Shown here piece by piece: positions 4,301 to 6,789 of a DNA stretch of 35,090 nt (positions are counted from its first letter, which is position 1; each line of letters starts with the position of its first letter). Below the pieces are notes generated by a model. It was not told where the DNA came from, searched no databases, and saw nothing but the letters and a program-made list of their open reading frames with translations. The translations under genes and the position numbers were made by a program. The stretch is from Gammaproteobacteria bacterium (GTDB lineage: Bacteria; Pseudomonadota; Gammaproteobacteria; J025), in assembly GCA_003696645.1 (NCBI GenBank), contig RFGN01000140.1:1-35090 (forward strand), written 5' to 3'.

Positions 4301-6789
4301 ATCCCAATGGGGTTGCCAGTCAGCCCGCACCAGCCGGGGGACTGATCGTCAACCCCGGCGCCGATCTGGTCATGCAGGTCACGCCCCAGAGTGGTGGAAC
4401 GGTCGCCCAGAATACGCCGATTACCTATACGTTGACCATTACCAATAATGGTCCGTCCACGGCGAAGGGAATCAAGGTGGTGGACACCCTGCCCAGCAAT
4501 GCTGCCACGACCTTTGATTCGGCCGTATTTCAGATCCCTGCACAGGGAACCTGCTTCATCAACAGCACCAGGGTATCGGGGGGTTGTGAGCAGAACACAC
4601 AAGGTCAGGTCGAGTTCGGGTTGAACAAAATCAACCCCGGTGATTCTGTTAAGATTGACGTGACCGTGACACCCAAGATCACCACCGGATCGGTCACCAA
4701 TATCGCCGAGATCGTCAGGGTGACATTGAACGGCATCCCTGGTACCCCGGAAAGCAGACCGGGTGATGAAAGGGTGACCACCGTGCTCAACCTGGCACCG
4801 GCTGTGGATCTGCAATTGGCATTGGTGGGAACCCCGTCCGATGGGGTACCCGGCCACCCGATCAACTATAATTTCACGGTTAAAAATATCGGTCCCCGGG
4901 ATGTGAATGGCGCTGTAGTAAATATGCCCATTCCAACGGGGGTAGTCGCCAATGACCCGACCCAACCCATCTCCTGGAGCTGTGCCCTGCCTGCTGGTTC
5001 GATTGGCACCTCTTCCTGTGTCGGAGCCACCTCGGGGAGCGGGGGGATTGCCAACAAACTGGTGAATCTGGCAGCCAACGGCGGAACATTGAATTTCAGT
5101 CTGAAAAATGCCCTGATCGATCCTGCTGCGACAGGCACCATCATCGCCACAATCACGGTAGATGCCCCCAGCACCGTGGCTGATACCAACCCGGCAAACA
5201 ATACTCTGGTGGTCAAGGATGCTCTGACGCCTGTGACCAACCTGACGCTGAGCCAGACAGATCGTTTTGATCCGGTACTGACCAGTACGACAGGGAATGA
5301 TAGCCTGATTACCTATGACATGACCGTGACCAATAATGGACCCTCGCTGGCAACCAATGTCGTGGTGACGGACAATCTTCCGGCCAATACTACGTTTGTA
5401 TCCATGACACCGGGGTGTGATACAGCTGTTGTTACCCCTTGCACGATTACAATCCCTGCACTGAATCCTGGAGAATCGAAGAACTATACCCTGGTGGTCA
5501 AGGCCCCGACTACTGTTCCGGCAGCAACCGGTTCGCTTGTTGTGACCAACTCGGTCAAGGCAGTATCGATACAAAACCAGTCGGGAACCGGTTTCATTGA
5601 TGAAACCACACAGATACTGGATGCCAATGGTCCCAAGTCGGCTGATCTGAACGTCACTCTCACAGCAACGGATGCCAATGGCGATGGCGTATTTTCCGCA
5701 GGTGAGGCAGTGACCTACAATATGGTGGTAGGCAATGCCGGACCTTTTGATGCCAACCAGGCAAGCATTGTGATGAACTTTCCCAATGCATCCACGTTCA
5801 GCAATACCTCAGGGCTGGCCTGTACGGTCATTTCGCAGAATGAGATCAGCTGCGACCTGGGCACCCTGGTACAGGGAACCAGCATTCCTGTTGCCGGCAC
5901 CTATAATCTACCAGGCACCACCGGCAATCTTGTGGTGGTGGCGACCGTCAAGAGTGCAGTGACCGGAGACCCGGATCTCAACAATAATGTCAGTACCCTC
6001 AATATTCCGGTGACGGCGCCGGTCAATGGTCAGGGGTCCACCAATGGTGGGGGAGGACTGGGACTCCCTGTACTGTTGTTGTTGTCTCTTGCCGTGGGGT
6101 TACGGCTTCGTGCGCGGTGGCTGTTTCGCCGATTCCTGTTTGCCATGATGCTGATGCTGTCTGGCGGCATGGCCTGGTCAGTCGAACCCCTGGAAGAGGC
6201 CGGGAAGTGGTATGTCCAGATCGACTATGGGCAGAGCGACGTCAGCAGTGTAACGGCAGAGAAGATCATACAGCAGGTGCAGGCCGATGGGTTCGGGATT
6301 ACCGGCCTGAAACTGGATAATGCCCGTACAGGGAAGGAATTTGTCCTGGGCTATCAGATCAGGCCCAGATGGGCGCTTGAGCTGGGATATGTCAACCTGG
6401 ATAATGTCAGGGTACGTCCGGAGGGCAATATTGCACTGGCCGATGTGGACGCCTTTCTCAATTCTGTGCTGATGCATACGCCGAGCAAGTCCAGGGGAGC
6501 CCTGCTGAATGTCAATGGACGCTGGCCATTGCTGGATGCCGTGCATGTTATCGGCAAGGCAGGCCTGTTTGTATGGAGTTCCGATCTTGATGCCTCCGCT
6601 TCCGTCGGTTCGACGGTGGTGCGCACCGTGCATCATACCGATCATGGTACCGATGCGTTTTTTGGTACAGGTGCGCAATTTCGCTTGACTCCCAGCTGGT
6701 CCTTGACGCTGGAATGGAAGGGTTTCTTTGGAGATGAAACAACCACTTTCATGAGCGGCGGTTTCCGCTATAATCTGCCCTTTATCTGA
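1384..6789 (+). CDS. Giant cell-surface/adhesin-like protein. Domains in order: N-terminal signal anchor, DUF7948-like domain, ~7 SBBP beta-propeller repeats, 5 DUF11 repeats, GlyGly-CTERM-like segment, C-terminal OmpA-like beta-barrel.
   Basis: Uninterrupted 5.4-kb ORF. ATG 1384 follows AAGGTG; TTG 1378 is also in frame. A basic stretch plus helix IGAILATIWLSVSLLIVANLV sits at the N-terminus. There are seven repeats of the type YLGGSGxDxxxxIAVDxxGxxYVTGxTxSxDF (SBBP blades). There are five ~110-aa repeats with the signature DLxI/VxK...ITYxLTVTNNGPSxAxxVxVxDxLP (DUF11). Confidence 0.85.
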   Translation: MGFSEYIHNKKIYTNSRRSKQIGAILATIWLSVSLLIVANLVTGPAALQNIPPRHASAVLSPKSDTVSSESTNTLSTRQTHALKTPLLFVPNEGQFRNEQLRYVVSGADYQIGVKADGIAMQLGQDQPARLDMRFAGQVASPRLEGRDPGITRYSYFLGSDASQWRSGLPGYQKVYFEQLYPGIDAVLYGQEGRLEYDFILQPGAQPETIRLQLAGVDQIRLDADGNLVMQVGNQSIMQSRPISHQIIDGQKVPVESRFVIDPQTMQVGFAVEAYNPVYPLIIDPQVMYSAYLGGSGNDFAHDVAIDANSHAFITGETNSLDFLTAGKTKKTPKTDSDIFVIEMDETGQILHRAQFGGDNIDEATGIAVDANGLVYVTGWTNSFETIDQNGNVIINGFPTQNPVKTALQAATTVPDIFVLRLRPNAVGAFDIDFGTYYGGSNEDRGTDIAVDSQGRMVVSFVTASSDFPGMQTSTTSPTGAYQGSFTGQAGGNPQQDAGFFVLKTTTDNTQTPPVTTTQEVYATYLGGSGRDLSHAIAIGPNDTIHVAGTTASTDFTTTPNALYSSNQSNDRCTNNPPNGVRGSQGNIVSGGEDGFLAKFDLSQLSTNTAGSNTHNEAIYVTYLGGNSSDDILGMDVDANGKVYLTGATFSSKETFLLDPNSACPGTLTFPNNWEPYYVQLDAAPNGTLGVLTSQIFTGGGGTDIGWDIGVDSQGIVSILGETQNGVNANFQTTNPLAGHATALGKEDVFLAQFDTNHNLIHSSLFGGADKDSALNFPLNGINGGFGLAVDHNNGVMYMVGSTRSTDFSHTLTGSGTPANPIAAESAADPNNPNNSISHQNGFVIAIGPTVDLSITKALVANQPTTITQGDIVSFDITVTNNSATDTATRIKVTDDLAVDINGVRTPNFSYVSFTPSATGLAPTGCSVDANQLLTCTLPDLPPNQAITFTLNLQAVRAASGITNIARVLALGNPNGVASQPAPAGGLIVNPGADLVMQVTPQSGGTVAQNTPITYTLTITNNGPSTAKGIKVVDTLPSNAATTFDSAVFQIPAQGTCFINSTRVSGGCEQNTQGQVEFGLNKINPGDSVKIDVTVTPKITTGSVTNIAEIVRVTLNGIPGTPESRPGDERVTTVLNLAPAVDLQLALVGTPSDGVPGHPINYNFTVKNIGPRDVNGAVVNMPIPTGVVANDPTQPISWSCALPAGSIGTSSCVGATSGSGGIANKLVNLAANGGTLNFSLKNALIDPAATGTIIATITVDAPSTVADTNPANNTLVVKDALTPVTNLTLSQTDRFDPVLTSTTGNDSLITYDMTVTNNGPSLATNVVVTDNLPANTTFVSMTPGCDTAVVTPCTITIPALNPGESKNYTLVVKAPTTVPAATGSLVVTNSVKAVSIQNQSGTGFIDETTQILDANGPKSADLNVTLTATDANGDGVFSAGEAVTYNMVVGNAGPFDANQASIVMNFPNASTFSNTSGLACTVISQNEISCDLGTLVQGTSIPVAGTYNLPGTTGNLVVVATVKSAVTGDPDLNNNVSTLNIPVTAPVNGQGSTNGGGGLGLPVLLLLSLAVGLRLRARWLFRRFLFAMMLMLSGGMAWSVEPLEEAGKWYVQIDYGQSDVSSVTAEKIIQQVQADGFGITGLKLDNARTGKEFVLGYQIRPRWALELGYVNLDNVRVRPEGNIALADVDAFLNSVLMHTPSKSRGALLNVNGRWPLLDAVHVIGKAGLFVWSSDLDASASVGSTVVRTVHHTDHGTDAFFGTGAQFRLTPSWSLTLEWKGFFGDETTTFMSGGFRYNLPFI
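6046..6117 (+). other. Internal GlyGly-CTERM-like sorting motif (GGGGLGLPVLLLLSLAVGLRLRAR) inside the giant ORF
   Basis: Gly run, then a ~15-residue hydrophobic helix, then an Arg cluster. This is the layout of C-terminal sorting signals, but no stop codon follows. Confidence 0.5.
6181..6786 (+). other. OmpA-like 8-stranded outer-membrane beta-barrel domain (OMP_b-brl type), preceded by a signal-peptide-like segment at 6094-6180
   Basis: The ~200-aa region reads GKWYVQIDYGQS...FVLGYQIRPRWALELGYVNL...VIGKAGLFVWSSD...FFGTGAQFRLTPSWSLTLEWKGF...GGFRYNLPFI. It has alternating amphipathic strands and an aromatic C-terminus. The preceding RLRARWLFRRFLFAMMLMLSGGMAWS resembles a Sec signal peptide. 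Confidence 0.6.

Follow-up and report, generated by a model that had tools for sequence, protein, structure and literature searches.

How can a protein carry, within its chain, a tail of the kind that otherwise marks its very end? This question is raised by a gene at positions 1384..6789 on the forward strand of a 35,090-nt stretch of DNA (contig RFGN01000140.1 of assembly GCA_003696645.1; the whole stretch is hereafter called the window). The gene encodes a large adhesin-like protein, the sorting-signal-like tail of which runs without a stop codon into a signal-peptide-like segment and a small outer-membrane β-barrel. We propose, with a probability of about 0.6, that its product is a two-in-one envelope precursor, in which a conserved pair of genes, one for an adhesin and one for a small OmpA-type barrel, has been fused, and which is made as a Sec-dependent polyprotein. 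The architecture and its evolutionary origin are documented by the comparisons described below; the processing steps are inferred.

Architecture of the adhesin-barrel gene

According to the list of open reading frames (ORFs) and the translation, the gene is a single open frame with possible starts at TTG 1378 and ATG 1384 and a stop codon at 6787-6789. The product of the ORF 1384..6789 (1,801 residues plus stop) is 100% identical to RMH20668.1 (cluster representative P0001), publicly named 'DUF11 domain-containing protein' and assigned to a metagenome-assembled genome (MAG) of a Gammaproteobacteria bacterium. An earlier, sequence-only reading of the window had described a Gly run, a hydrophobic helix and an Arg cluster after the last DUF11 repeat with no stop codon behind them; all three lie where it had placed them, in an uninterrupted frame. 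The Gly motif GGGG (residues 1555-1558; 6046..6057) is where we propose that a sorting protease of the rhomboid type would cut, as suggested by its conservation in the family and its alignment to the start of the TIGR03501 model. It is followed by hydrophobic helix 1, LGLPVLLLLSLAVGL (residues 1559-1573; 6058..6102), which hydrophobicity scans and a conserved position in the family mark as a candidate stop-transfer sequence and inner-membrane anchor. The next segment is the Arg-rich loop RLRARWLFRR (residues 1574-1583; 6103..6132), with five Arg and no acidic residues, which we propose to be cytoplasmic from its translation and the composition of the family loops. Hydrophobic stretch 2 (helix 2), FLFAMMLMLSGGMAWS (residues 1584-1599; 6133..6180), ends with the small-x-small sequence AWS and is the proposed internal signal peptide, its position being equal to that of the signal peptide of stand-alone barrels. 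The remaining 202 residues (1600-1801; 6181..6786) begin with VEP and constitute an eight-stranded OmpA-type β-barrel according to Pfam, AlphaFold and Foldseek, with the strands at about 6208-6774. The Arg-rich loop may have two roles, closing the sorting signal with its basic residues and supplying the n-region of the proposed internal signal peptide.

The part upstream of the tail is an adhesin-like passenger (1531..6045, forward strand), in which Pfam and NCBIfam recognise DUF7948 (residues 89-285; 191 bits), SBBP β-propeller repeats (52.5 bits), several DUF11 repeats (154.8 bits in 4-5 stretches) and DUF7507, with an NCBIfam score of 106 bits for B_ant_repeat. Before it, the translation of 1384..1530 gives a basic N terminus and a 21-residue hydrophobic stretch, IGAILATIWLSVSLLIVANLV, a putative Sec signal peptide or signal anchor of the passenger. 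The last DUF11 repeat runs directly into the tail, without a choice-of-anchor domain.

Distribution of the cassette

A word-indexed homologue search with the 269-residue tail and barrel found no relatives, and a profile search with the alignment A1 found only 20, mostly stand-alone barrels; the cassette family is too divergent for word-indexed searching. An exhaustive HMMER search over 1.84 billion cluster representatives (50%-identity clusters) recovered 843 relatives at E ≤ 1e-3. Many of the best 150 are long proteins of about 450 to 3,374 residues with the barrel at the extreme C terminus. The long relatives align from query positions 10-22, hence with the Gly motif and both helices included, and barrel relatives of about 200-230 residues align only from about query position 70. 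The full cassette is present in 47-50 of the 150 best representatives by a strict pattern and in 60 by a looser criterion. Its junctions recur in the order (K/S)GGGG(A/S), helix, Arg/Lys cluster, hydrophobic stretch 2 and first strand 'WYxG', with the second hydrophobic stretch ending in AQA, AHA, ADA or similar. With this order of elements repeated in 47 or more independent clusters at 50% identity, the arrangement is far beyond chance.

One carrier is an isolate, the complete genome of Gallaecimonas sp. GXIMD4217, in which a 1,217-residue protein (WP_341503083.1) is encoded on a 3.35-Mb contig, and further carriers lie on contigs of about 480 kb and about 540 kb. With a sub-alignment of nine sequences that share Ex[AG]YVDLG[ED]V, we scanned one genome for each species and obtained 36 loci. 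The barrel lies within a long continuous ORF in L001 (Woeseiaceae; 1,151 codons from stop to stop), L007 (1,166), L026 (1,923) and L032 (2,905), and likewise in L016 (Ectothiorhodospiraceae), L025, L030 and others. The passengers contain DUF11, He_PIG, Calx-beta, PKD, cadherin, CARDB, Chlam_PMP and further domains, and because they differ so widely the cassette is portable. The composite cassette is not represented by any model in Pfam or NCBIfam, and the public names of two members mention passenger repeats only.

The window barrel is about 30% identical to its nearest relatives, which are mostly fused forms, and the window protein is a singleton in its 90% cluster. The neighbouring Smr gene product, used as a synteny anchor, returned one weak, unrelated match only, and the assembly index contained no exact match to the window adhesin or ParC.

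Several short representatives of 240-290 residues, among them P0058 (248 residues), P0092 and P0027, start just before the Gly motif ('MKSKAKGGGAFGAIEMLLLIMAAALLRIRRVRR...') and have the full helix-loop-helix-barrel; either these forms lack a passenger, or the gene calls were cut off on very short contigs (that of P0058 measures about 1.2 kb).

Split loci and the origin of the fusion

In three loci (L002, L024 and L031) the Gly-helix-basic tail is the true end of a large adhesin ORF, the stop codon of which overlaps the start of a stand-alone barrel gene, as ATGA in L002 and L024 and as GTGATG in L031. These barrel genes encode their own signal peptides, and a Shine-Dalgarno (SD)-like tract lies 8-11 nt upstream of the barrel start (AAGGAA, AGGGA, AAGGAG). 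At a fourth locus, L011:9850-10900, an adhesin of more than 3,363 residues ends with '...SGGGGGTVFWLLLLCSGALVSRRWTIRR', which is followed by TAA, two codons (6 nt) and, in the same frame, the ATG of the barrel 'MKISHLLAYSALFFVLLISTRANAQA...'; AGAAGG stands just before the adhesin stop. The tail is the extreme C terminus of the adhesin in all four, and L011 is a single stop-codon loss away from the layout of the window. Since split loci exist and L011 differs by one in-frame TAA, the comparison supports a stop-codon-loss fusion of adhesin and omp genes as the evolutionary origin of the window gene. We found no signs of a recent or genome-specific fusion, the fused cassette being widespread and the window barrel being nearest to other fused barrels. 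The sequence-only reading had considered a recent fusion of this type. The fusion is borne out as an origin by L002, L024, L031 and L011, but its recency is not, the cassette being widespread and conserved. Whether orthologues are one ORF or two, which that reading had wished to see compared, has an answer at the level of the family, where both fused and split forms exist; the genome and metagenome collections searched gave no close orthologue of the window gene.

The ATGA overlap of L024 (2325-2385) is flanked by A7 and A9 runs and is slippage-prone. This homopolymer context could allow switching between the split and fused states, or could be a source of sequencing errors.

The same loci bear on the possibility that the fusion in this MAG is an artefact or a very recent lesion, such as a miscalled stop or a 1-nt indel, of an ordinary split pair. 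The contig is metagenome-assembled, the protein is a singleton without a close orthologue in the collections searched, one split locus is only a stop codon away from the fused form, and another has its junction between slippage-prone runs. However, the fused state occurs naturally in at least 47 independent clusters, a complete isolate genome included. The window junction has the spacing and composition typical of fused members and lacks the SD-like tract seen at all four split loci, and the window barrel is most similar to other fused barrels. An assembly or sequencing error, which had also been offered as an interpretation, is therefore unlikely to account for the architecture, and we consider it improbable for this MAG taken alone.

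Helix 2 as a proposed internal signal peptide

We compared mature lengths, counted from the first small-x-small site past the last hydrophobic stretch. The median is 194 residues for fused barrels (n = 60; interquartile range (IQR) 193-197) and also 194 residues for stand-alone barrels (n = 55; IQR 187-200). The preferences at -3 and -1 are alike in the two groups, with Ala the commonest residue at both. The putative cleavage site in the window, AWS|VEP between 6180 and 6181, lies at the same distance from the barrel as in the stand-alone relatives. By position and composition, helix 2 thus appears equivalent to the signal peptide of stand-alone barrels, and the signal-peptide-like segment that the earlier reading had noticed before VEP agrees with them in position, mature length and -3/-1 preferences. 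The loop between the hydrophobic cores has a median of four basic and zero acidic residues in 45 aligned cassettes, a composition that fits the positive-inside rule and makes the loop look cytoplasmic. The mean hydropathy of the two helices is about 2.3-2.7, and the stretch from helix 2 to the first strand is only about 10 residues long.

Could the barrel instead be made mainly from a nested gene by internal initiation, with read-through from the adhesin being incidental? In-frame starts do exist in the window (GTG 6094 and ATG 6145/6148/6154/6169), as had been pointed out from the sequence for all but the last of them, and a product from GTG 6094 would have a normal signal peptide. We found no SD-like tract before GTG 6094 or ATG 6145-6169, whereas the split loci have one. 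Nor do the family junctions share a Met at a fixed position between the helices; in some members, such as P0003, Met is missing there altogether. Because both the SD-like tract and a conserved inter-helix Met are missing, a separately initiated barrel is not supported by these comparisons. Ribosomes on the long upstream ORF would, moreover, occlude internal starts, and we regard this explanation as very unlikely.

The C-terminal domain is an OmpA-type barrel

The window barrel matches PF01389 (OmpA_membrane) with 49.5 bits against a cut-off of 21 and PF13505 (OMP_b-brl) with 35.9-36.4 bits against a cut-off of 28.7, and PF01389 matches all 28 full-length fused members scanned. The AlphaFold model, computed with the 45-sequence family alignment, has a mean predicted local distance difference test (pLDDT) score of 85.6 and a predicted template modelling (pTM) score of 0.74, with most barrel residues above 90 pLDDT. 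The simplest reading of the DSSP string of the model is eight strands with short periplasmic turns, the strand count being an interpretation; by the same count, short helices are predicted in what would be the first two outward-facing loops. In a Foldseek search of the PDB, the OmpA transmembrane domain came first (E = 7e-12; template modelling score (TM-score) 0.78-0.81 normalised to the target). The OmpA structures 9fzd, 1bxw and 1qjp have target-normalised TM-scores of 0.67-0.81, and Ail, OmpX, the N domain of OprF (OprF-N) and NspA follow after OmpA. The C terminus is aromatic, a hallmark of outer-membrane proteins. The C-terminal domain is thus a genuine OmpA-type outer-membrane barrel. 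The barrel of about 200 residues and eight strands proposed from the sequence is confirmed by the profiles, both above their cut-offs, and by the OmpA-like predicted fold; a non-barrel fold, which would have spoken against the proposal, was not obtained.

This fold has a direct bearing on an autotransporter-like, self-anchoring arrangement, another interpretation put forward in the sequence-only reading, in which the barrel would stay covalently joined to a passenger that crosses the membrane by way of the barrel or alongside it and is later set free at the Gly motif. The order of passenger and C-terminal barrel superficially resembles that of classical autotransporters, and a few relatives have a single hydrophobic segment. 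In L006:8864-10597, L013:2-1252 and P0061, the barrel is joined straight to a cadherin-like or other soluble domain ('...VTVRHIEKPLLWYVWGDYGY...') with no hydrophobic segment or Gly motif, and in P0048 and P0142 it is likewise fused directly to a soluble domain; a barrel with a soluble domain and without helices is a third architecture of the barrel family. However, the eight-stranded OmpA-like fold has a pore too narrow for a polypeptide, and the autotransporter β-domains of EstA, BrkA and Hbp reach a TM-score of at most 0.28 to the window barrel; Pfam finds no autotransporter family at E ≤ 1 on the window protein. The two hydrophobic helices with their Arg-rich loop would be kept in the inner membrane, the short connection between helix 2 and strand 1 could not cross the periplasm, and the split loci show the barrel working as a separate protein. 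Self-anchoring of this kind is highly improbable.

The sorting-signal-like tail

When the window tail is treated as terminal, it spans the full TIGR03501 (GlyGly-CTERM) model, positions 1-22 of 22, and no other sorting-signal model outscores TIGR03501 on it. The tripartite layout (GGGG, LGLPVLLLLSLAVGL and RLRAR) is kept across the family. One Gly of the motif is present in all of the 45 aligned cassettes and another in at least 90% of them; in 43 aligned tails two Gly are invariant, and the consensus motif is GGGG. Of these 43 trimmed tails, 23 match GlyGly-CTERM at E ≤ 1 (best E = 1.1e-4), which makes it the commonest model, and about 11 match at E ≤ 0.025, a value taken by extrapolation as roughly the curated TIGR03501 score. 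MYXO-CTERM (TIGR03901) is the second commonest, with 21 matches among the 43. We rejected a MYXO-CTERM identity, attributing these matches to the shared helix and Arg region; with Asn before the Gly run, the motif of the window protein reads NGGGG, without the invariant Cys. PEP-CTERM, IPTL-CTERM, PGAP-CTERM, JDVT-CTERM and similar signals were set aside as well, with at most 1-3 of the 43 tails matched.

The sequence directly before the tail is informative in other members. Choice-of-anchor models describe domains that adjoin C-terminal sorting signals of varying type. The NCBIfam domain choice-of-anchor U directly precedes the Gly motif in 14 of 28 full-length fused members, and other full-length fused members carry choice-of-anchor Q, D or T. 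In the alignment A4, half of the fused members share '...CVQxTIxDGGPNDxDGxxNGxxxDPGGV' (choice-of-anchor U) just upstream of the tail, a sequence absent from the window protein.

As for the sorting enzyme, we screened nine multi-transmembrane ORFs near cassette loci, eight of which are transporters or unmatched. The only rhombosortase-like one, L031:2-607, encodes 201 residues with six transmembrane segments and matches TIGR03902 over profile positions 10-152 of 154 with E = 5.8e-8. It lies 5.4 kb upstream of the split adhesin and barrel genes of L031, with a molybdate ATP-binding cassette (ABC) permease gene between. A six-transmembrane ORF with a GxSG sequence, adjoining L001, proved to be FetB-like and was rejected as a sorting protease.

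A proposed pathway and its weighing

These features would be consistent with the following pathway, the export, stop-transfer and re-export steps of which rest on membrane topology rules, and the cleavage, sorting and partnership steps on analogy. The passenger of about 1,500 residues would be sent through Sec by its N-terminal signal until helix 1 halts transfer and lodges in the inner membrane, with the Arg-rich loop staying in the cytoplasm. Helix 2 would then re-engage the translocon as an internal signal peptide with an N-in/C-out orientation and export the barrel. Signal peptidase I would cut after AWS, and the freed 202-residue barrel would reach the outer membrane via the chaperone and β-barrel assembly machinery (BAM) route; the barrel would have to be released because the approximately 10 residues from helix 2 to strand 1 are far too few to span the periplasm. 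The adhesin, held by its Gly-helix-Arg tail, would be cut at the Gly motif by a rhombosortase-type intramembrane protease and moved to the surface, as is VesB. On the surface the barrel may serve it as an anchor or partner, in the way that TraB serves TraA. The fusion would guarantee 1:1 synthesis and co-localised insertion of the adhesin and the barrel.

Several points weigh against this pathway. No processing step was observed, and all that goes beyond the architecture is inference on our part. The window protein has no close orthologue in the genome and metagenome collections, which leaves the small chance, noted above, of an error in this MAG. The window tail scores 11.4-11.9 bits with TIGR03501, under the 15.5-bit cut-off, and lies 223 residues (counted after the basic cluster) away from the extreme C terminus. 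The GlyGly-CTERM/PEP-CTERM-type layout claimed from the sequence therefore stands as regards its tripartite order and full-length alignment to TIGR03501, and falls short in score and terminal position. In the split loci, where the tail does end the protein, it likewise stays under the cut-offs, with 15.1 (L002) and 13.7 bits (L024) against 15.5 for GlyGly-CTERM and 19.9 bits (L031) against 20 for MYXO-CTERM, and that of L011 matches no model. Because these tails are below the cut-offs or unmatched, the sorting enzyme of the family may be something other than rhombosortase; the Gly-helix-Arg tails may form a related but distinct signal class. The rhombosortase-like ORF of L031 reaches only 32.8 bits against the 84-bit TIGR03902 cut-off. 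The earlier reading had called for a search for rhombosortase or exosortase genes; within the 35-kb window we found no rhomboid, exosortase, rhombosortase or type II secretion genes. A rhomboid-type protease would, moreover, have to accept a tail that is still joined to a second helix. Finally, the hairpin topology fails to explain P0017, P0025, P0038 and P0050, in which the Gly motif is followed by a single hydrophobic stretch (18-26 residues), no Arg loop, an AxA site and the barrel. With a single span and a periplasmic passenger, the barrel would be left in the cytoplasm. Either an internal deletion has made these variants decayed alleles, or their segment is not retained in the membrane.

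The low scores of the window tail, which lies under every sorting-signal cut-off, and the lack of a sorting enzyme encoded nearby would also suit a different function, in which the two-helix hairpin is a permanent inner-membrane tether instead of a sorting signal and the barrel-like domain has a periplasmic role. But in both sequence and fold, down to its aromatic C terminus, the barrel bears the marks of an outer-membrane protein, and its small-x-small site is at the distance seen in stand-alone secreted barrels. In addition, half of the members have a choice-of-anchor domain before the tail, and in the split loci the tail is seen to be a true C-terminal signal. We give a permanent tether very little credence, and favour the two-in-one precursor with its internal sorting signal and internal signal peptide.

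Implications

A broader proposal, which we advance tentatively and hold at less than even odds, is that the family represents a widespread, undescribed class of envelope polyproteins, in which an internal sorting signal and an internal signal peptide yield an adhesin and its dedicated barrel. In that case, surface proteins of the GlyGly type (rhomboid-sorted) would, in many Gammaproteobacteria, be held or received by a specific protein partner and not by lipid modification alone, and the Gly-helix-Arg tails may define a new subclass of sorting signals that has a processing enzyme of its own. Among bacteria, the family would be an unusual case of a C-terminal-type sorting signal working internally, and likewise an unusual polyprotein in which an internal signal peptide resolves products for two different compartments. 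The surface retention of rhombosortase-type-processed proteins of Gram-negative bacteria is only partly understood, the inferred lipid-like modification of VesB being the sole proposed mechanism. Since the family ties such tails, both genetically and covalently, to one small outer-membrane barrel, it offers a concrete candidate partner, which the cultured carrier Gallaecimonas sp. GXIMD4217 makes testable. Annotators name the members by their passenger repeats ('DUF11 domain-containing protein', 'putative Ig domain-containing protein'), and the barrel and sorting signal are overlooked; the localisation predictions for hundreds of large adhesins are therefore probably wrong.

Genomic surroundings

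The genes around the adhesin-barrel gene are housekeeping genes. A K+ channel gene lies upstream; downstream follow Smr, parE and parC, then EF-P, a lysyl-tRNA-synthetase-like gene, RsgA, an M48 peptidase, RNase R, leuCDB and others. A 566-residue ORF on the reverse strand (11590-13290), flanked by parC and a radical-SAM gene, has no Pfam or NCBIfam match. A 154-residue ORF on the forward strand (19753-20217) carries an RRM-type RNA-binding domain, for which the best specific NCBIfam model, 'RNA-binding regulator', scores 72 bits against a 100-bit cut-off. Further downstream, after a gene for a TPR-repeat protein, two consecutive, slightly overlapping ORFs both encode FGE-sulfatase (SUMF1-like) domains (24906-26896, forward strand).

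Comparison with known systems

The window barrel shares profile membership and fold with stand-alone OmpA-like barrels (the OmpA N-domain, OmpX, Ail and NspA), and many of its family relatives are ordinary proteins of 190-230 residues with an N-terminal signal peptide. It differs from them in the place of its proposed signal peptide, which lies inside a larger protein after some 1,580 residues, and in its helix-bearing loops, which the DSSP strand count suggests to be outward-facing. Classical autotransporters (type Va) likewise combine a large repetitive passenger with a C-terminal barrel in one gene. However, they have a 12-stranded barrel with a linker through its pore and no inner-membrane helices, whereas the window protein has eight strands and a hydrophobic hairpin. 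The cytochrome b/c1 precursor FbcH of Bradyrhizobium japonicum is a polyprotein split by an internal signal peptide. As proposed here, one product gives two envelope proteins by the action of signal peptidase at an internal signal sequence after a membrane span; FbcH gives two inner-membrane respiratory subunits, whereas the window gene would give an adhesin with its own sorting signal and an outer-membrane barrel.

The GlyGly-CTERM/rhombosortase system (RssP/RrtA) sorts type II secretion system (T2SS) cargo such as VesB of Vibrio cholerae (PMC3237569, PMC6219818, PMC13393428), and the surface delivery of VesB needs rhombosortase cleavage, a glycerophosphoethanolamine-type modification and the T2SS (PMC6219818, PMC13393428). 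In both that system and the present family, a tripartite tail of a Gly-rich motif, one helix and a basic cluster follows a Sec-exported surface protein. The family tails match TIGR03501 more than other models, and a rhombosortase-like gene lies near one split locus. The known signal is by definition the last ~22 residues of its protein, whereas that of the window is followed in frame by a helix and a 202-residue barrel, and neither the window tail nor the tails that end the adhesins of the split loci rise above the curated score. A dedicated barrel partner for GlyGly-CTERM proteins is not described in the literature searched.

In gene layout, the split loci resemble traA and traB of Myxococcus xanthus. 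The genes for TraA, which has a MYXO-CTERM tag, and TraB, which has a predicted barrel and an OmpA domain, overlap by four bases (PMC3325183). Mutants of the two have identical phenotypes, and the proteins cluster together in the outer membrane (PMC3325183, PMC6626042); dependence of a surface protein on a barrel is shown for TraA/TraB alone (PMC6626042). The gene of the sorting-tagged surface receptor stands immediately upstream of the barrel gene, with the geometry seen in L002 and L024. The split relatives are thus pairs of this type, a gene for a tagged protein with a coupled barrel gene, and the window gene is an in-frame fused version. TraB is larger than the family barrel and carries an OmpA peptidoglycan-binding domain; myxosortase cuts the TraA tag, in which a Cys is invariant, and TraA and TraB are described as the products of two separate genes.

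The sequence-only reading knew of no described system with this domain order. Our literature searches, which covered the founding GlyGly-CTERM and myxosortase papers and ranged more widely, agree with it, as they gave no description of a sorting-type tail in frame with a signal peptide and a barrel. The parts are all of known kinds, namely an OmpA-like barrel, a Sec signal peptide and a GlyGly-like tail, and the split pair has a good analogue in traAB. What appears to be new is the in-frame order of tail, signal peptide and barrel, which recurs in dozens of distantly related bacterial proteins.

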